Below, one piece after another: positions 51,552-58,491 of a stretch of DNA of 64,000 nucleotides (positions are counted from its first letter, which is position 1; every line of letters starts with the position of its first letter). Origin of the DNA: an uncultured bacterium (lineage in GTDB: Bacteria > Krumholzibacteriota > Krumholzibacteriia > LZORAL124-64-63); the NCBI GenBank assembly GCA_963727525.1, contig CAVSGO010000007.1, positions 512,001-576,000 of the forward strand. Reading direction: 5' to 3'. The notes beneath the pieces are model-generated. The model was not told where the DNA came from, searched no databases, and saw only the letters and a program-made list of their open reading frames with translations. The translations under genes and the position numbers were made by a program.

Positions 51552-52123
51552 TGGACAGTCAGGATCCGATACCCATGCCCCATGATCACGAGTCCACCGG
51601 ACCCGAAACCACGGGTTCCGCGTCGACCGAATCCTCGCCCGAGGAAACCGGTATCACACCGGTCTCCACGCATTTGCCGGATGCCAGTGAAGGGTTCCGC
51701 GTCGCCGAGCGCGCCGCTGCCCTCGCCATCGACAAGAAGGCCGACGATGTCGTCATCGTCGACCTGCGTGGGCTCTCTGACGTATGCGATTTCTTCGTGA
51801 TTGCCACCGGCCAGGCCGACGTCCAGGTGCGCGCCATCGCGGGCGCAGTGGAGGACGGCCTGCGCAAGATCGGACAGAGGCCGGTCGGCGTGGAGGGCAC
51901 GAACGAGGGGCGCTGGGTGCTGATCGACTTCTTCGACGTGGTCGTGCACGTCTTCCGGTACGAGGCGCGCGACTACTACCAGCTCGAACGCCTCTGGGCC
52001 GACGCGCCGGTCCTGGTGGTCGACGCGGACCACCTGAGCAGCGACGGATTCAGGGAGCGGCAGCCCGAGCTCATCACGCCGCCGGCAGCCGGCCGCGCAG
52101 GCGAAGCGACGGAAGCACCATGA
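51551..52123 (+). CDS. rsfS: Ribosome silencing factor RsfS
   Basis: DKKADDVVIVDL, DFFVIATG, WVLIDFFDVVVHVF, RDYYQLERLWADA. Start uncertain (51551 or 51575). Confidence 0.93.
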   Translation: MDSQDPIPMPHDHESTGPETTGSASTESSPEETGITPVSTHLPDASEGFRVAERAAALAIDKKADDVVIVDLRGLSDVCDFFVIATGQADVQVRAIAGAVEDGLRKIGQRPVGVEGTNEGRWVLIDFFDVVVHVFRYEARDYYQLERLWADAPVLVVDADHLSSDGFRERQPELITPPAAGRAGEATEAP

Positions 52124-53856
52124 TCGAGACCATCATCGGCGACGCGCTGCGCCGGGCGCTGGAGAAGCTCGGTATCTACGAGGACGATGTCGAGATCGCG
52201 CTGGAGAAGCCGCGCGACCGCGGACACGGCGATCTGAGCACGAATCTCGCGCTCGCCCTGGCCAAGCGCCTCGGGCGCAAACCGCGGGAACTGGCCGGCG
52301 AGCTGGCCGCGGCCCTGGCGATCGACCGTGATGAGATCGAGTCGGTGGAGATCGCGGGTCCCGGATTCATCAATTTCAGGATCGCGCGCCCCTTTCACGT
52401 CGCGCGGCTGCTCGAGCTGCTGGACGGCCGCGCGCTGGAGGCCATCAAGACCGGCGGCGACAAACGCATCAACGTGGAATTCATCAGCGCCAATCCCACC
52501 GGTCCGCTCAATGTGGTCTCGGCGCGGGCCGGCGCCTTCGGCATGACGCTATGCCGCCTCCTCGACGCCGTGGGCTTCGATGCCCATAGCGAGTACTACG
52601 TCAACGATGCCGGTCGCCAGGTGAGCCTGCTCGGCGCGTCGCTGCGAGCCCACTATCTGCAGCTTCGCGGTCGTCCGGTGGAGTTTCCGGAGAACGGCTA
52701 CCAGGGGCGGTACCTCGAGATCATGGCTTCGGAGCTTCTCGAACAGGATAGCGGCGCCATCCAGAAGGCGACGTCGGCATTCAACGACGAGAGCTTCCAG
52801 CGCGTGCGCGCACCGGAGGGCAACGCCGAGGACTGGTGCAAGAAGCCGGTCGACGACTCGATCCGCAGTTTCGCGAAGTACGCCCTGATGAAGATCCTGA
52901 GCTGGCAGCGTGATACCTGCCGCCGCTTCGGCTTGCGCTTCGAGACCTGGTACTTCGAGTCGGAGCTGCACGAAACCAAACGCGTCGAGCGCGCGCTCGA
53001 CCGGCTCAAGCGCTCCGGCATGACCTTCGAGCAGGACGACGCGCTCTGGTTCCGTTCCACCGATTTCGGTGACGAGAAGGATCGCGTCCTGATGCGCGCC
53101 GACGGGGCGCCCACGTATTTCCTGGCGGACATCGCCTACCATTACCACAAGTTCCAGCGTGGGTTCGAGCATGCGATCGACTTCTGGGGTCCCGACCATC
53201 ACGGCTACATCCCGCGCATGCAGGGAGCGATGCGCGCCCTCGGCGTGGAGGACGACTGGCTCGAGGTGCAGATCCTTCAGCACGTCACATTCCTCGAAGA
53301 TGGCAAGCCCATCAACATGTCGAAGCGCAAGGGCCATTTCGTCACCATGGATGCGTTGATCGACGAGGTGGGCGCCGACGTCGCCAAGTTCATCTTCCTG
53401 ACGCGCAAGCCCAACTCGCACCTGGAATTCGACCTCGACCTCGCCAAGACGCAGTCGAACGAGAATCCGGTGTACTATGTGAAATACGCACACGCTCGGA
53501 TCTGCTCGGTGCTGCGCCAGGCGGCCGAGGCCGGGGTAGCCGTGCTCGCGCCGGATGCCGAGGGTCTCATGGCGCTGGAGCACGACGCGGCCTGGGCTCT
53601 CGTGCGCGAGCTGATCCGGCTGCCGCAGGTCATCGTGTCGGCTGCCGAGGCCCGCGAGCCCCATCGTCTCACCGGGTACATCGGCGACGTCGCCGCGCTC
53701 TTCCACACGTTCTATCATCAGTGCCGCATCCTCGGCGAGGATCCGGCGAGCACCAGCGCGCGCCTCATGCTCTGCCAGATCACACGGCAGGTGGTGGCGC
53801 ATGTCCTCGATCTCATCGGCGTGGATGCGCCCGAGGTCATGGGCGAGAAGGAGTGA
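52120..53856 (+). CDS. argS: Arginine--tRNA ligase
   Basis: HGDLSTN, IAGPGFINF, EFISANPTGPL, EYYVNDAGRQ, TYFLADIAYH, MSKRKG, NPVYYVKYAHAR. Confidence 0.97.
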   Translation: MIETIIGDALRRALEKLGIYEDDVEIALEKPRDRGHGDLSTNLALALAKRLGRKPRELAGELAAALAIDRDEIESVEIAGPGFINFRIARPFHVARLLELLDGRALEAIKTGGDKRINVEFISANPTGPLNVVSARAGAFGMTLCRLLDAVGFDAHSEYYVNDAGRQVSLLGASLRAHYLQLRGRPVEFPENGYQGRYLEIMASELLEQDSGAIQKATSAFNDESFQRVRAPEGNAEDWCKKPVDDSIRSFAKYALMKILSWQRDTCRRFGLRFETWYFESELHETKRVERALDRLKRSGMTFEQDDALWFRSTDFGDEKDRVLMRADGAPTYFLADIAYHYHKFQRGFEHAIDFWGPDHHGYIPRMQGAMRALGVEDDWLEVQILQHVTFLEDGKPINMSKRKGHFVTMDALIDEVGADVAKFIFLTRKPNSHLEFDLDLAKTQSNENPVYYVKYAHARICSVLRQAAEAGVAVLAPDAEGLMALEHDAAWALVRELIRLPQVIVSAAEAREPHRLTGYIGDVAALFHTFYHQCRILGEDPASTSARLMLCQITRQVVAHVLDLIGVDAPEVMGEKE

Positions 53857-53859
53857 TCC

Positions 53860-54768
53860 GTGGCGATCCTGGTCGTGGGTTCAGTGGCATACGATACGGT
53901 GGAGACCCCGCGTGAAAAGCGCGAACGGCAGCTCGGCGGCAGTGCGAGTTTTTTCAGCCTCGCGGCGGGTGCCGACGCAGGCGTGCGAGTGGTGGCCGTG
54001 GTCGGTGACGACTTCCGCGAGGAGCATCTCGCGTTGCTGCGCGACCACGGCGTGGATATCGCCGGGATCGCCCGCGCTCACGGCCCCAGCTTCCACTGGT
54101 CGGGCCGCTACCACCTCGACTTCATCGAGCGCGACACGTTGCTCACCGAGCTCGGCGTGTTCGCAGGATTCAAGCCGGAGATCCCCGCTGCCTGGCGCGA
54201 GTCCGAGTACCTCTTCCTCGCCAACATCCATCCGACACTCCAGGCGGAGGTGCTCGCCGGGGTGGCCCCGCCGCGCCTCGTGGTGCTGGACACGATGAAC
54301 CTCTGGATCGAAACGACACGCACCGAACTGCTCGACGTATTGCGCAAGGTCGACGTGCTGCTGGTCAACGACTCCGAGGCCAAGCTGCTCACCGGGGAGG
54401 CGAGCCTCGTGCGCGCTGCCGCGGCGATTCGCGATCTCGGTCCCGCGCGGGTCGTGATCAAGAAGGGAGAGCACGGTGCTCTCTACTTCGGCGGAACGTC
54501 ACGCCTCGCGGTGCCGGCTCTGCTCCTGCCCGAGGTCGTCGACCCCACCGGCGCCGGCGACAGCTTTGCCGGCGGGTTCGTGGCCAGCCTCGCCGCGAGG
54601 GGTGTCGGTCGCGAAGCCAGTGACGACGCCTTCCGGCAGGCGATGATCGACGGGACCGTGGCTGCCAGCTTCTGTCCGGAGGCATTCAGTGTCGACGGAC
54701 TGCTGCGCCGCACCCCGAGCGACGTGGCCGGGCGCCGCGAGTGCTTGCTGAATATGATGGTTCCTTAG
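53860..54768 (+). CDS. PfkB-family carbohydrate/nucleoside kinase
   Basis: VVGSVAYDTVETP, LGGSA, DTMNLWI, VNDSEA, KKGEHG, DPTGAGDSFAGG. Confidence 0.93.
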   Translation: MAILVVGSVAYDTVETPREKRERQLGGSASFFSLAAGADAGVRVVAVVGDDFREEHLALLRDHGVDIAGIARAHGPSFHWSGRYHLDFIERDTLLTELGVFAGFKPEIPAAWRESEYLFLANIHPTLQAEVLAGVAPPRLVVLDTMNLWIETTRTELLDVLRKVDVLLVNDSEAKLLTGEASLVRAAAAIRDLGPARVVIKKGEHGALYFGGTSRLAVPALLLPEVVDPTGAGDSFAGGFVASLAARGVGREASDDAFRQAMIDGTVAASFCPEAFSVDGLLRRTPSDVAGRRECLLNMMVP

Positions 54769-54893
54769 TTCGGGAGACGACGAATTTTCATTTTCCATCT
54801 CATCTCATAAGCGTTTATAATAAAGCATCTTATCCTTCTTGTGTTGTCCCGTATGTCGGAGTATGCTTTGTCCGTACTCCGGACTGATCGGCA

Positions 54894-54909
54894 TGGCGCG
54901 AGGCTCGCT
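54894..54909 (+). promoter_or_regulatory. Candidate sigma54 promoter with upstream AT-rich tract and inverted repeat
   Basis: TGGCGCGAGGCTCGCT: GG 54895-96, N10, GC 54907-08. AT-rich 54783-54840. GGAGTA..TACTCC inverted repeat at 54858-54880. Confidence 0.55.
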
Positions 54910-54932
54910 ATCGGCACGAAGGAGACCCACCC

Positions 54933-55742
54933 TTGGAATGGCAACCCGACGAAAGCTCCGACTGGATCCACGACGCGGAACGTTGGATCGCGAAGATCAA
55001 GGATGTACTGCAGTGCAAGGTCGAGGTCGATCGTGATGGCGAGATCCAGGGCGTTCACGTTGTGGCCCGCCAGGGCCGTGACCCACGTCTCATCGTCCGC
55101 GACGTCGAGGGGCTCCTGAAGGCCCGGCTCGGTATCGCGGTGTTCTACAAGAAGATCGGCGTGGTGCAGGTCGTGGAGACCGACGCGCCGCAACCGGCCA
55201 GCCCCCAGACGCCCGAGGCGCCTGCCGCTGTGGCGGCCGAGCCGGACGTGGTGGAACCCGATGTGGCCGAGGACGACGACGACGATGACGTCCAGGACTT
55301 CGAGACCGACGCCATTCTCCTGGCGGAGGAACTCGCTCCCCGCATCAAGTGTGTCGGGGTGGGGTTGATGAGCACCGAGTCCGTGATTCGCGCCGAGGTG
55401 CAACTTCAGGCTGCCGGCGCGGACGCGCGCGGGACCTGCGAGGGGCCGAATCGCAGCGCGAACGACATCGAACTGATCGCCACAGCGGCCCTCGACGCCG
55501 TGGGGCAGCTATTGGACGAATCCGTGAGCCTTAACCTCGCGGAGGTCAGGGTGGCGCCGCTCGGAGGCCACGACGTGGTTTTCGCGGCGGTCGAGTTGAT
55601 CGAGGGGCGACGCGCCGAGCGCCTGTTCGGCACTTGCCAGCCCCAGCAGAATCTGCATCAGGCGGTGGTCTTCGCCGTCCTTGATGCGCTCAATCGTCGG
55701 CTGGCTCTCATGGCCTTCAAGTCGCGAGAGGCCACTGGCTGA
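54933..55742 (+). CDS. Hypothetical protein; C-terminal domain resembles the LeuA (isopropylmalate synthase) allosteric fold
   Basis: AAGGAG SD and TTG start. N-domain (GVHVVA..PRLIVRDVEGLL), acidic linker, and C-domain AEVQL..GTCEG..ATAALDAV..LFGTC..AVVFAVLDALNRRL. Confidence 0.75.
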   Translation: MEWQPDESSDWIHDAERWIAKIKDVLQCKVEVDRDGEIQGVHVVARQGRDPRLIVRDVEGLLKARLGIAVFYKKIGVVQVVETDAPQPASPQTPEAPAAVAAEPDVVEPDVAEDDDDDDVQDFETDAILLAEELAPRIKCVGVGLMSTESVIRAEVQLQAAGADARGTCEGPNRSANDIELIATAALDAVGQLLDESVSLNLAEVRVAPLGGHDVVFAAVELIEGRRAERLFGTCQPQQNLHQAVVFAVLDALNRRLALMAFKSREATG

Positions 55743-55751
55743 AACGGAGAC

Positions 55752-55938
55752 GGGAACCGGGACCGGGTGTCGATTACCACAGAGCGGAGTTGATGAGTGG
55801 AGCGGCCTTCTGCTGTCTAAGATCGCCCAAGATAGCAAGATCTAGTGCGACAGGAGGTGCCACGATGATCGAGTGGGTGCTGGATATGCTCACGAAGTGG
55901 GAGTGGTAATTTGACATCTCAGGTTCCGGTTCCCTTTT
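55752..55938 (+). other. Long-range inverted repeat (29 bp including G-U pairs) enclosing the small ORF and followed by TTTT
   Basis: GGGAACCGGGACC-GGGTGTCGA-TTACCAC (55752-55780) pairs with GTGGTAA-t-TTGACATCT-ca-GGTTCCGGTTCCC (55903-55934). Confidence 0.75.
55865..55909 (+). CDS. Small 14-aa Trp-rich peptide MIEWVLDMLTKWEW
   Basis: Near-perfect SD AGGAGGT at 55852-55858, 6 nt before ATG. ATG ATC GAG TGG GTG CTG GAT ATG CTC ACG AAG TGG GAG TGG TAA. Every sense codon ends in G/C except one. Confidence 0.65.
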   Translation: MIEWVLDMLTKWEW

Positions 55939-56063
55939 GTGATGTTCTCGCCTAAGTTGTATCCAAGAATGCGGTGCATGGGGATCAAGATAACTCAAGT
56001 CTTGTGGCCCGGCGGGCGATACTCTTCCTAGGGGCAGCCGACCATGGCGGGAAGGGCGGACAG

Positions 56064-57398
56064 GTGACCACGACGCGTCAAGCACGGCGCTGGCTTTTCG
56101 CTCCCACCTACTGGGTTTTCGTGCTTGGTGGCGCGCTTTTCCTCGTCTACTTGATTCAGCACCACGCACCCCCGCATCCGCAGTGGGGCGCGATCCTCGC
56201 GCTCTTCGCCTTCCTACTCGCAGCCGATACCAAGCTAGCGGCCTCCCAGGTCTCGGGCGGCCGCGTCATGTCGTCCAAGTGCATCGTGCTCGCAGTGATT
56301 GCGCTCTTCGGCCCCGCGGCGGCGGCGTGCATGGAGGCGGTGTCGGCCCTGTTGCGAGGGCTCATCCAGCGACGTACGACCCCCCGCAAGGCCATATTCA
56401 ATTCTGCGATGCTCGCGTCGGCGGCAGGGGCGGCCGGTCTGGTCTATGGCATCCTGCCGTTCAGCGACAACTACGCGTCGCCGCTCATCGTGCTGCCGCT
56501 CGCCGGCGCCATGGTCGTGCATTCCGTGGTGAATTCGGCCATGCTGGGCGTGATCATCAGCCTCGACGCCGACATGCCCTTGCAACGCGTCTACCGGAAC
56601 AGCTTCTTCACGGCCAAGCTGCGCGTACTGCTGGACCTGCCATTCGCCGTGATGATCGCACTGCTGTATCTCCAGGGCGGAGCCTGGACGCTGGTGCTCT
56701 TCCTTTTCCCGGTGCTTGCGCTCTACCAGAGCGACCGCCTCTACCAGCGCAACAAGGAAGCCCACATCAACAGCATTGCCGCACTGACCACGGCCCTCGA
56801 GGCAGACGAACCCTACACGCATGGACACAGCTACCGGGTGGCGAAGTTGGCGGTGACCATCGGCGGTTCCATGAACATGAACGACCGCGACCTCGAGACG
56901 CTCGAGTACGGTGGTCTGCTGCACGACATTGGCAAGATCGCGATCAGCAACGAGATCATCTGCAAGCCGGGCCGCTTGACGGAGAGCGAGTTCGAGGTCA
57001 TCAAGACCCACGCCACGATCGGCGCCGACATCGTCGAGCAGATCAAGTTCCTGGCCAAGGCCACCGACCTGATCCGCCACCATCACGAGCGCCCGGATGG
57101 CCGCGGCTACCCGCACGGGCTCAAACGCGACGAGATCTCGCTGGGCTGCGCCATCCTCAACGTCTGCGACGCCTTCGATGCCATGACCACGGACCGGCCC
57201 TACCGCAAGGCCCTGAGCGTCGAGAAGGCCATGGAGGAACTCGTACGGCACAAGGGCTCGCAGTTCGACGATAGGGTTGTCGACATCATGCTCAAGCTCT
57301 ATCATCAGGGCGAGTTCGACGACATGCGAGAGATGCGGACCAAGGATATGCCCTTTCCGACGGACGTGACGCGGACGCCGCAACGGCTGGTCTCCTGA
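56064..57398 (+). CDS. Membrane-anchored HD-GYP cyclic-dinucleotide phosphodiesterase
   Basis: About 6-7 hydrophobic segments, then PYTHGHSYRVA, LLHDIGKI, KPGRLT, HHHERPDGRGYPHGL, DAFDAMTTDRPYR. GTG start at 56064 is preferred over 55974. Confidence 0.92.
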   Translation: MTTTRQARRWLFAPTYWVFVLGGALFLVYLIQHHAPPHPQWGAILALFAFLLAADTKLAASQVSGGRVMSSKCIVLAVIALFGPAAAACMEAVSALLRGLIQRRTTPRKAIFNSAMLASAAGAAGLVYGILPFSDNYASPLIVLPLAGAMVVHSVVNSAMLGVIISLDADMPLQRVYRNSFFTAKLRVLLDLPFAVMIALLYLQGGAWTLVLFLFPVLALYQSDRLYQRNKEAHINSIAALTTALEADEPYTHGHSYRVAKLAVTIGGSMNMNDRDLETLEYGGLLHDIGKIAISNEIICKPGRLTESEFEVIKTHATIGADIVEQIKFLAKATDLIRHHHERPDGRGYPHGLKRDEISLGCAILNVCDAFDAMTTDRPYRKALSVEKAMEELVRHKGSQFDDRVVDIMLKLYHQGEFDDMREMRTKDMPFPTDVTRTPQRLVS

Positions 57399-57477
57399 CC
57401 GTTGCCGGCCGAACCGCCCCCGACCCCGATTCGCGATGAACCCGGACGAACGAGGATCCGATGCAAGCGGTGAACCG

Positions 57478-58491
57478 ATGAAGTATGCCGAGAGCGGTGT
57501 GAACATCGACGTCGCGACGCGCGCGCTGGCGCGTGCGAAGTCGGCTATTCGCAGCACGTGGGATCCGCGGGTCAAGAGCGACGTGGGAGCTTTCGGCGGG
57601 CTCTACCAGCCGGCTCCCGGTGAACCGTATCTCGTGGCCAGCGTGGACGGCGTGGGCACCAAGGTGAAGATCGCGGCGCAGGTCGGACGCTATGACACGG
57701 TGGGGCAGGACCTGGTGAATCACTGTGTCGACGATATCCTCGTGCAGGGTGCGGAGCCGCTCTTCTTCCTCGATTACTTCGCCGCCGGCGTCCTCGAGGA
57801 GGACGTGCTACCGGCGGTGATCGAGGGCCTGGCCGCCGCCTGCCGCGAGAATGGATGCGCGCTCCTGGGCGGTGAGACCGCGGAGATGCCCGGCGTGTAC
57901 GCGCGCGGCGACTTCGACCTCGCCGGCGCCATCCTGGGCCGCGTTCAGCCGCAGGACGTGCTCGACGGATCTCGGTTGCGGGCCGGTGATCGTATCTGGG
58001 GCATGGCGTCCACCGGACTGCACACCAATGGCTACTCGCTCGCCCGCCGCGTGCTGCTGGAGCGAGCCGGGCTGGCGCTCGATGCCACCCCGGCGGGCCT
58101 GGATGGGTCCCTGGCCGACGCGCTCCTCGCCGTGCACCGCAGCTACCTGCAACCGGTGCGGGCTCTCTGGGACACCGCGGGCCGCGAGGCCGTGCATGGC
58201 CTCGCCCATATCACGGGCGGCGGGTTCTACGATAATGTGCCGCGCATCGTCCCCGACGGGCTCTGCGCGGTCATCGACACCACCGCCTGGTCGGTGCCGC
58301 CGCTCTTCCGCCTCATTGCCGACCTTGGCGAGGTGCCGCCACAAGAGATGTACCGCGTGCTCAACATGGGCGTGGGACTGTGCATGGTGCTCCCGCCCAC
58401 CGTTGATCCGGCCGAGGCCGGCGTGATCGCCTGGCCAATCGGCGAGGTCGTCGCGGGCGACGAGAAGGTCCGCGTGATTCTCGGGCGGTGA
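57478..58491 (+). CDS. purM: Phosphoribosylformylglycinamidine cyclo-ligase
   Basis: YAESGVNID, GAFGGL, DGVGTK, GAEPLFFLDY, GGETAEMPG, STGLHTNGYSL, AHITGGG, LNMGVG. Confidence 0.97.
   Translation: MKYAESGVNIDVATRALARAKSAIRSTWDPRVKSDVGAFGGLYQPAPGEPYLVASVDGVGTKVKIAAQVGRYDTVGQDLVNHCVDDILVQGAEPLFFLDYFAAGVLEEDVLPAVIEGLAAACRENGCALLGGETAEMPGVYARGDFDLAGAILGRVQPQDVLDGSRLRAGDRIWGMASTGLHTNGYSLARRVLLERAGLALDATPAGLDGSLADALLAVHRSYLQPVRALWDTAGREAVHGLAHITGGGFYDNVPRIVPDGLCAVIDTTAWSVPPLFRLIADLGEVPPQEMYRVLNMGVGLCMVLPPTVDPAEAGVIAWPIGEVVAGDEKVRVILGR

Follow-up and report, generated by a model that had tools for sequence, protein, structure and literature searches.

The stretch of DNA analyzed here, hereafter the window, comprises 64,000 nucleotides of contig CAVSGO010000007.1 (positions 512,001 to 576,000 of the forward strand) from an uncultured Krumholzibacteriota bacterium assembled as GCA_963727525.1. 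At positions 55752 to 55938, between a gene encoding a 269-residue protein (UP269) and a gene encoding an HD-GYP protein with a MASE9 sensor domain, the window carries a long-range helix that encloses a small open reading frame (sORF) of 14 codons. The locus is composed of the following features:

54792..54821, + strand: sigma-70-like promoter TTTCCA-18-TATAAT before the UP269 gene, the only promoter-like site 5' of the element

54933..55742, + strand: UP269, 269 amino acids, without a Pfam family; 10 nt separate its stop from the helix, and it is the conserved upstream neighbor of HD-GYP across the class

55752..55780, + strand: 5' strand of the helix; the conserved core, P1, is 55753-55762, and the inner 9 + 7 bp are lineage-specific

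55865..55909, + strand: sORF, 14 codons and TAA, MIEWVLDMLTKWEW, with an ATG start, a GGAGGTG Shine-Dalgarno sequence (SD) and coding periodicity

55903..55934, + strand: 3' strand of the helix, beginning in the last sORF codons and stop; P1 core 55924-55933

55935..55938, + strand: TTTT run after the helix, not conserved among homologues

55994..56022, + strand: sigma-28 (FliA)-type site CTCAAG-15-GGCGATAC (CTCAAG at 55994-55999, GGCGATAC at 56015-56022), with six of eight positions matching in the -10

56064..57398, + strand: MASE9-HD-GYP gene, GTG start, 444 amino acids, co-inherited with the element

The helix is the closing stem (P1 and an inner extension) of a conserved RNA of approximately 190 nt harboring a tiny translated gene, and this RNA occurs in three families (f1, which includes the window, f5 and f6) of Candidatus Krumholzibacteriia. 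In the window itself, re-reading of the sequence reproduced exactly the three blocks of 13, 9 and 7 bp with two small bulges that a preliminary description of this DNA had reported: 55752-55764 (GGGAACCGGGACC) pairs with 55922-55934 (GGTTCCGGTTCCC) over 13 bp with one G-U, 55765-55773 (GGGTGTCGA) with 55911-55919 (TTGACATCT) over 9 bp with three G-U, and 55774-55780 (TTACCAC) with 55903-55909 (GTGGTAA) over 7 bp, the bulges being a single base (T55910) and two bases (CA55920-55921) on the 3' strand. Equally exact were the observations that the four non-Watson-Crick pairs are without exception G-U on the + strand and that, in the window, the 3' arm contains the last Trp codon and stop of the sORF and is followed by TTTT, since this strand spans the last base of Glu13, Trp14 (55904-55906) and the TAA (55907-55909). 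The outer 13-nt arms were recovered by a repeat search too. Upon folding of 55745-55945 with RNAfold, the whole helix was present in the minimum free energy structure of the + strand, which at -84.2 kcal/mol lies well beyond 200 dinucleotide shuffles (-64.6 +/- 4.1; z = -4.75, no shuffle equal), against -60.9 kcal/mol on the - strand (z = -2.85, one of 200 shuffles equal). No match to Rfam 15, including GEMM-I/II, leaders and small RNAs (sRNAs), was returned by cmscan at E up to 10 on either strand of 54500-57000.

Some properties of the comparative material apply throughout: all genomes are metagenome-assembled and related, and counts across them are not independent; part of the sequence set was gathered by a pattern fixing the SD and codons 11-15; structures are predicted from thermodynamics, and promoters are called by consensus match. 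A DNA search of 61 related genomes located the sORF region in several genera; at six loci a like-patterned ORF of 14 codons follows GGGAGGTG and is enclosed by a long-range helix, and 71 loci were obtained with the UP269 protein as bait. In the alignment of 32 distinct f1 elements from which the P1 consensus was taken (arms GGAACCGGC / GCCGGUUCC), 96.8% of the P1 cells are paired and seven of the ten pairs display compensatory changes; none of 500 shuffles reached any of four measures, and controls slid by one to three columns left merely 23-52% of cells paired. Because these homologues hold 20 G-U cells in P1 and only three A-C or C-A cells, selection acts on the + strand RNA, in accordance with the RNA-level selection that had been proposed from the four wobble pairs of the window. 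The covariation that was to be expected among homologues is likewise found outside f1. In f5 the closing stem (arms CCGGUGCGAUG / CAUCGCACCGG) has 13 bp, seven of them with double changes independent of those in f1, and in f6 it is different in sequence again (arms GGCCGGUUGAGGGGAG / CUCCUCUCAACCGGCC, among others), with covariation of its own. When arms were compared across the families, the cognate arm was the sole best partner in 13 of 26 sequences, where about one was expected by chance. The closest relative of the window (L158, HD-GYP 75% identical) retains the long helix via changed bases, and the 3' helix strand extends as far as the final sORF codons or stop in 24 of the 32 evaluable f1 sequences and in all 19 f5 and f6 sequences. 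A mobile element of the MITE type (miniature inverted-repeat transposable element), with terminal inverted repeats, was ruled out by the G-U asymmetry, which indicates RNA, and by the presence of a single copy of this stretch in its own 4.66-Mb genome.

By its pattern of substitution, the sORF is a real gene under selection. Summed column entropy over 33 distinct f1 ORFs (29 distinct peptides) amounts to 8.66, 6.83 and 15.65 for the first, second and third codon positions, every ORF has T in the middle of codons 2, 5, 8 and 9, Glu13 and Trp14 are invariant, and the stop is TAA or TAG in every case. The coding frame put forward for the window is therefore well founded: open frame, start and SD are kept while third positions vary in excess. 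An intact 14-codon frame preceded by GGAGGTG, without indels, is also found in the 31 sORF-bearing loci among the 71 reached through UP269 alone, a set free of the later sORF search pattern. The f1 peptide follows the consensus M-[LIF]-x-[WFY]-[ILVF]-x-x-[LIMF]-[FLM]-x-[KR]-[WFY]-E-W, the f6 peptides extend from MFWVLGSKVKW (11 residues) up to MTFLEMMLDFFSLAGVIKW, and those of f5 read MFKFIFDLFFGDLLLTKTWW (20 residues) or MWFIILDWFFGDVDTKVWW; over the three families the sORF thus has 11-20 codons and always ends in Trp-stop. Position 4 is W in 17, F in 15 and Y in one of the f1 ORFs, and position 12 W in 24, F in eight and Y in one, which makes a sensing of several Trp codons unlikely. Since only the last Trp is invariant across f1, f5 and f6, the number of Trp codons would matter less than the C-terminal residue or the peptidyl-tRNA present when translation terminates.

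With regard to the origin of the peptide, the HD-GYP protein of the one f5 genome that lacks the sORF (G050, L192) begins with MLDFLRGFRWPF, which is similar to the peptide of f1 (MLDFILGLFYKWEW). As weak evidence, this similarity hints that the micro-ORF originated as a duplicate of the 5' end of HD-GYP. In one f1 genome (G006) two copies of the module are present (C8:94206-94264 and C19:33993-34051), differing by W or F at peptide position 12, and probably reflect a mixture of strains.

The element is dedicated to the gene encoding the MASE9-HD-GYP protein, a phosphodiesterase of cyclic di-GMP (c-di-GMP). In translation, the gene shows HD_5/HD domains, including the motif HHExxDGxGYP, and at the N-terminus a multi-pass domain, annotated as MASE9 in most homologues. 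Both sORF and HD-GYP are found at 31 of the 71 UP269 loci and neither at 33, the remaining seven being cut short; at those 33, a CTTGAAC-17-TATCAT promoter and an AIR-synthase (purM-like) gene come immediately after UP269. A strict pattern of SD and sORF matched 38 of the 208 genomes of the phylum, all of them f1 and, except for one metagenome-assembled genome with two copies, with one copy each, and its reversed control gave no match. The MASE9 domain of this HD-GYP occurs in 41 of 91 f1 genomes, i.e. those with the sORF pattern and three more, of which one has an SD-ATG spacing of 8, outside the pattern, and two have the locus at contig ends. Likewise, a scan of 241 million metagenome records recovered 30 loci, all in the same context, with 29 of them preceded by UP269 and 22 followed by HD-GYP, the contigs of the other eight ending within a few hundred bases. 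From sORF stop to HD-GYP start the distance is 65-214 nt in f1 and 155 nt in the window. At one locus (L146, G009:C4:124834-125543) the HD-GYP sensor domain matches in three frames downstream of an intact sORF, a pattern that stems either from frameshifts in the gene or from indels introduced by long-read assembly. The promoter of the purM-like gene in the window (TTGTCG-17-TATCAT, 57277-57305) lies inside the 3' end of the HD-GYP gene, and a promoter of the same type follows UP269 where the module is missing.

The interior of the closing stem is organized as well. In the window it contains the following features:

55782..55789, + strand: motif 1 (GAGCGGAG), first copy of the twin AGCGGAGC, from the alignment

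55795..55803, + strand: motif 2 (GAGTGGAGC), second copy, directly 5' of the anti-SD, from the alignment

55806..55812, + strand: anti-SD CCTTCTG, predicted to pair with CAGGAGG at 55851-55857

55811..55837, + strand: hairpin P3 (TGCTGTCT / AGATAGCA), from the fold, with the conserved GCAAG after it

55853..55859, + strand: extended SD GGAGGTG, invariant in 32 aligned f1 sequences and predicted to be paired

A segment-anchored alignment of 36 distinct f1 sequences defines a common order from 5' to 3': P1, a variable strand whose partner is found past the sORF end and in many cases overlaps it, two copies of (G)AGCGGAGC located 3-30 nt apart, a CCUC-type anti-SD directly 3' of the second copy, P3, GCAAG, the SD, the sORF and the 3' arm of P1. 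One or two hairpins lie between anti-SD and sORF, and P3 shows covariation in this alignment. Partition-function folds give the SD a mean paired probability of 0.84, its partner lies at most 9 nt after motif 2 in 28 of the 36 sequences, and a GCCUCAC/GUGAGGU helix is retained in f6. The exact twin motif is nearly confined to the element (26 of 31 matches in 91 genomes fall at the module, and the control gave 13 matches). Several further candidates were discarded: GAGCGGAGC is not enriched genome-wide (47 matches against 206 for its reversed control), pairing of the P1 arms with a GUUCC/GGAAC hairpin before the SD showed by eye no consistent covariation across clades, and motif-sORF pairings proposed by RNAalifold are unsupported, with an invariant motif side and several mismatched cells. 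A YTGAC/YTGAG box (TTGACA in the window, 55910-55916) is conserved 2-8 nt past the sORF stop in most f1 sequences, in constant phase relative to that stop whether paired or unpaired.

The twin motif raises the question of a ligand. The two (GAGCG) copies could form a site for a multimeric RNA-binding protein, for example flagellar CsrA, or part of an aptamer, so that the RNA would act as a sponge or as a riboswitch with the sORF as expression platform. The motif is the most conserved non-coding part of the RNA, is confined to the element and abuts the anti-SD, and the genome encodes a flgL-fliW-csrA operon and FliA, with a flagellar-type promoter before HD-GYP. RNAs bound by CsrA carry several A(N)GGA motifs in hairpin loops, one of them over the SD. 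Here both motifs and the SD contain GGA, but the motifs have a pairing probability of 0.66-0.72 and are not predicted in hairpin loops, and their GCGGAGC differs from the ACGGA/AGGGA sites in flagellin leaders of the same genome. Nor is there an Rfam riboswitch match; binding of the trp RNA-binding attenuation protein (TRAP) to GAG-NN-GAG repeats was considered and dropped, as no TRAP gene was found. We regard such a protein- or ligand-binding riboregulator as distinctly unlikely. In this genome (G000) the flagellar genes include a fliD, fliS, csrA, fliW and flgL cluster and three tandem flagellin genes (C7:1011164-1014316, L138, and C7:1006948-1009440), and the flagellin leaders show putative CsrA sites of the ACGGA/AGGGAGGA type.

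The same sequestered SD, together with pairing of the 5' and 3' ends and a hydrophobic peptide, recalls the mRNAs of type I toxins such as hok and tisB, in which SD sequestration and pairing of the ends are combined, and a fold-back inhibiting a small toxic peptide had been mentioned as an analogy for the window. Type I systems comprise a toxic membrane peptide and an antisense RNA partner and are often multicopy or mobile. The element, however, is single-copy, strictly syntenic and vertically inherited with HD-GYP, 11-14 residues are too few for a membrane span, and a promoter scan of 54700-57600 on both strands gave no - strand site. The analogy is consequently weak and the chance that it holds very small indeed.

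The HD-GYP gene is far more widespread than the element. An orthologue 32-39% identical, single-copy, is found in nearly all other families of the class; genomes with an orthologue number 18/34 in f1, 0/7 in f2, 27/28 in f3, 21/22 in f4, 12/12 in f5, 9/10 in f6, 5/5 in f7, 11/11 in f8 and 1/1 in f9. Upstream DNA at 33 of these loci outside f1 revealed the element directly before HD-GYP in 11 of 12 f5 and in all eight f6 loci, with long-range helix, twin AGCG(G/A)AGC, anti-SD, strong SD and a sORF ending in Trp-stop. In these two families HD-GYP starts 29-63 nt after the sORF stop, i.e. 8-40 nt after P1. Stop-codon read-through into HD-GYP was rejected for f6, the distances of 29, 32 and 33 nt not being in one frame. 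In f3, f7 and f9 (eight loci) the element is missing and a TGGCAT-N5-TTGC (sigma-54-type) box precedes HD-GYP in seven, all except L188 (L177, L178, L182-L184, L190 and L195), and in f4 and f8 (five loci) HD-GYP starts right after the UP269 stop, within a few bases in L181, L185, L187 and L196. None of the 14 loci without the element (f3, f7, f9, f4, f8 and one of f5) has the twin motif. The comparison thus points to UP269-HD-GYP as an old gene pair and to the leader with its micro-ORF as an insert between the two, common to f1, f5 and f6. As leader, sigma-54-type box and UP269 adjacency differ by family, one gene pair appears to be tied to three different sigma factors or couplings.

The promoters around the element bear on how it could act. 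In f1, 8-27 nt separate the UP269 stop from P1, and the 150 nt preceding P1 in 36 f1 sequences yielded no sigma-70 promoter and a single marginal sigma-28 site; because no promoter-like site lies between UP269 and P1, the element of the window is probably transcribed together with UP269. In all 11 f5 elements, on inspection by eye, a TTGACA box and a -10-like hexamer lie about 40 nt before P1, so that transcription would begin at the first P1 bases and the 5' end of the RNA would be base-paired. A TTGAGT-18-TATATT sequence over the 3' arm was rejected as a sigma-70 promoter, its score passing in only three of 36 loci. Promoters recognized by sigma-28 consist of a TAAA-type -35, a spacer of about 15 nt and an GCCGATAA-type -10, and a CTCAAG-14/15-GCCGATAA-type site is found between helix and HD-GYP in 21 of 36 distinct f1 loci, window included. 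As for the A/T-rich box after P1, it fits better as the -35 portion of this site. Two flagellin genes of the same genome have CTCAAGT-13-GTCGATCA and CTAAAGT-13-GCCGACAA, and FliA is encoded there (268.8 bits, over the cut-off), as is a flgL-fliW-csrA operon. Given these flagellin-type sites and the presence of FliA, the HD-GYP gene of the window is most likely a sigma-28, late flagellar gene with a promoter of its own. In the f1 genus g22 no good sigma-28 site is found, and HD-GYP starts about 65-70 nt past the sORF stop, like in f5 and f6.

These data also bear on the mechanism suggested in the preliminary description, a Trp-codon-sensing Rho-independent attenuator in which a ribosome slowed at W-E-W would prevent a terminator and allow read-through into HD-GYP. 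The helix of the window does end in TTTT(G)T and encloses a Trp-rich peptide whose last Trp codon is invariant in f1, f5 and f6. Nevertheless, a T-run of at least four within 12 nt after P1 is found in only 12 of 59 distinct f1 homologues (at least five in eight, with T7 in G012) and is absent from the other 47, including the closest relative L158, so that the U-run is not a general feature and an attenuator of this kind cannot be the conserved mechanism of the family. The terminator "loop" would be a structured stretch of 120-160 nt, a scan allowing loops of 3-8 listed no intrinsic terminator after the window helix, no competing antiterminator pairing came to light, F or Y can take the place of W4 and W12, and HD-GYP lies outside the Trp pathway. 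Read-through is, moreover, not needed for transcription of HD-GYP at the 21 f1 loci in which the sigma-28-like promoter lies downstream of the helix, contrary to what had been assumed. Taken literally, this mechanism is thus improbable, even though the TTTT may well add termination locally in the window.

Alternatively, the helix could serve in processing or stability, another possibility raised beforehand: as an interrupted duplex of 25-40 bp it would be an RNase III-type stalk, comparable to the stems flanking rRNAs, or a 5'-3' clamp that cuts an RNA of about 190 nt out of the UP269 transcript or protects it, and shields the sigma-28 promoter against transcription arriving from upstream. A length of about 40 bp with the outer extension in the clade of the window, the short distance from the UP269 stop to P1 with no promoter between them, and the base-paired 5' end predicted in f5 are all in accordance with such a role. 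In several clades, however, the conserved helix is of 13-16 bp only, which is short for RNase III, and the twin motifs, the sequestration of the SD and the selected peptide would be left unexplained. We therefore consider this explanation quite unlikely.

A further possibility is that the product of interest is the peptide, the RNA being a mini-cistron for a trans-acting, hydrophobic, aromatic and Lys-containing micropeptide of 11-20 residues, a partner or modulator of the MASE9 domain, with P1, SD sequestration and motifs stabilizing the mRNA and timing its translation. Purifying selection extends over the whole peptide and not the C-terminus alone, the 20-mer of f5 hardly changes from genus to genus, none of the 32 aligned f1 sequences deviates in the extended SD, and peptide gene and HD-GYP are inherited together also where a sigma-28 promoter stands between their transcription units. 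Small membrane proteins encoded beside their partners are an established kind. In the available part of one report, small membrane proteins tied to c-di-GMP riboswitches are described in Clostridioides difficile (PMC13724677). Eleven residues would nevertheless be extremely short for a stable partner, the peptide varies much in length and sequence between families while the architecture of the RNA is constant, and no fusion of the peptide to HD-GYP was seen at the N-termini of eight inspected homologues from other lineages. Taking both sides together, we find this explanation somewhat unlikely, and it is one that can be true along with the reading presented next.

With a confidence slightly short of even, we hypothesize that the element is a translation-gated leader, or micro-cistron, for HD-GYP, in which a structured RNA of about 190 nt is controlled through its translated micro-ORF. 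By default the SD would be sequestered by the anti-SD, and a signal at the junction of twin motif and anti-SD would release it. A ribosome translating the micro-ORF would then melt the inner helix and probably dwell at Trp-stop in the manner of an arrest peptide; such dwelling at the stop codon is made probable by the selection on the whole peptide and by its constant Trp end. Since the 3' strand of the helix extends into the final codons and the stop, the inner helix could not coexist with a ribosome terminating there, and the remodeled leader would set the output of HD-GYP from leader-containing transcripts. In f5, f6 and g22 this output would be exerted by translational coupling, HD-GYP starting 29-70 nt past the sORF stop. 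In the window, the leader would probably be read from the UP269 promoter, helix and TTTT would stop or pass that transcription, and the downstream sigma-28 promoter would provide a second, leader-independent route to HD-GYP. Besides this, the membrane domain of HD-GYP may be a target of the peptide in trans.

Several observations weigh against the translation-gated leader. At the 21 of 36 f1 loci in which a sigma-28-type promoter splits the leader from HD-GYP the element is fully conserved; because of this intervening promoter, control in cis could there touch only read-through transcripts, and the full conservation fits a trans-acting product better. In f1 the sORF stop lies 13-21 nt before the conserved 3' arm of P1. 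A comparison of cognate and non-cognate duplexes for the non-coding inner arms of f1 gave a weak result, the cognate arm being the best in 5 of 36. With a ribosome placed in silico on the sORF stop of 17 f5 and f6 leaders, the outer P1 stays intact, and the initiation region of HD-GYP has a pairing of 0.35-0.75 with or without that ribosome. Hence, of the earlier proposal that a ribosome at the end of the sORF blocks the helix, the part concerning the inner helix stands, as its overlap with the stop is shared by most f1 and all f5 and f6 sequences, and the part concerning the outer P1 does not. In addition, the sORF peptide shows no likeness to known arrest peptides.

Regarding known systems, the element functions most like regulatory leaders that bear a peptide (tnaC, pepNL, secM, mifM, mgtL) and resembles dual-function sRNAs, yet by sequence and architecture it is a member of none of these groups. 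In the pairs SecM-secA, MifM-yidC2 and ErmCL-ermC, a ribosome on the leader ORF melts a helix and thereby changes expression of the next gene, and the overlap of helix and ribosome footprint at the end of the leader ORF is shared by the element. Here, in contrast, the long-range helix encloses the whole ORF, no sensor of force or drug is evident, and in silico a ribosome on the stop neither opens the outer helix nor frees the initiation region downstream. The mgtA leader combines a riboswitch with the proline-rich sORF mgtL; a sensing RNA domain and a translated micro-ORF within a structured leader are features in common, but there is no homology, and the peptide of the element is conserved as a sequence and not as a codon class. 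Attenuators of the trpL type share with it a 14-codon ORF with Trp codons and, in the window, a helix followed by a T-run, and differ in that Trp codons 4 and 12 are not conserved in the element, the T-run is restricted to 12 of 59 homologues, no antiterminator alternative was found and the downstream gene is not a Trp gene. Dual-function sRNAs such as SgrS/SgrT, RNAIII/hld and Spot 42/SpfP are likewise short structured RNAs with conserved non-coding motifs and a very small frame, whereas the element is fixed beside one gene and in f5 and f6 is part of the 5' leader of that gene. The c-di-GMP riboswitches GEMM-I and GEMM-II are also structured 5' elements before genes of c-di-GMP enzymes, with a P1 adjoining the expression platform; unlike them, the element gives no Rfam match and has its ORF embedded inside the structure. 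The closest parallels are TnaC of the tna operon and PepNL, encoded upstream of pepN. PepNL, according to the available portion of its report (PMC11890864), is the 14-residue peptide of an upstream ORF that arrests the ribosome at its own stop codon. TnaC and PepNL share with the element a very short ORF (14 codons in PepNL) located just 5' of the controlled gene, a peptide conserved in sequence and not in codons alone, and a proposed action at the stop codon, and PepNL depends on UGA whereas the 33 distinct f1 ORFs end in TAA or TAG. The element further departs from both in having no sequence likeness to them, in carrying its ORF within a domain closed by P1 with its own sequestered SD, and in preceding a gene for a c-di-GMP phosphodiesterase.

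On these sequence comparisons, the element is a new RNA family together with a new micropeptide family. In the portion of the full-text literature covered on HD-GYP proteins with small proteins or upstream ORFs and on Krumholzibacteriota, no such element is described. The family comes from a phylum known only through metagenomes and links a translated micro-ORF with how a c-di-GMP phosphodiesterase, here most likely one of the flagellar sigma-28 regulon, is controlled or works. We know of no signal for MASE9 sensor domains, and a strictly co-inherited peptide and leader offer a concrete handle on MASE9 sensing. Moreover, HD-GYP genes joined to the leader, set apart from it by a promoter, or leaderless form a natural series in which the evolution of a leader ORF between cis and trans roles can be followed. 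In its most far-reaching form, which we put forward as an unlikely yet specific proposal, the element would be a two-stage riboregulator: a sensing junction of twin AGCGGAGC and anti-SD would gate the micro-ORF, and its Trp-ended peptide of 11-20 residues would arrest the ribosome at the stop within the closing helix, thereby setting the c-di-GMP phosphodiesterase of the flagellar regulon, with the peptide possibly the smallest known subunit or ligand of MASE9.

As for the neighboring genes, an AlphaFold2 model of UP269 (mean confidence, pLDDT, 85.7) shows an N-terminal alpha-beta-beta-alpha-beta domain that matches the ring-building motifs of EscJ and PrgK, followed by a disordered acidic and Pro-rich linker and a C-terminal domain with a double beta-beta-beta-alpha fold like that of the allosteric domain of LeuA and citramalate synthase. 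Judging by this model, UP269 may be a small-molecule-binding partner of the HD-GYP system. A role as an RNA-binding partner was rejected, as matches to the double-stranded RNA-binding domain reach template-modeling (TM) scores of only 0.13-0.19 and UP269 persists in genomes free of the element. Further upstream, the longest ORF of the arginyl-tRNA synthetase gene (51784-53856) has an Arg/Gly/Pro-rich N-terminal stretch of about 110 residues before Arg_tRNA_synt_N, and its true start is probably an internal ATG near 52117.

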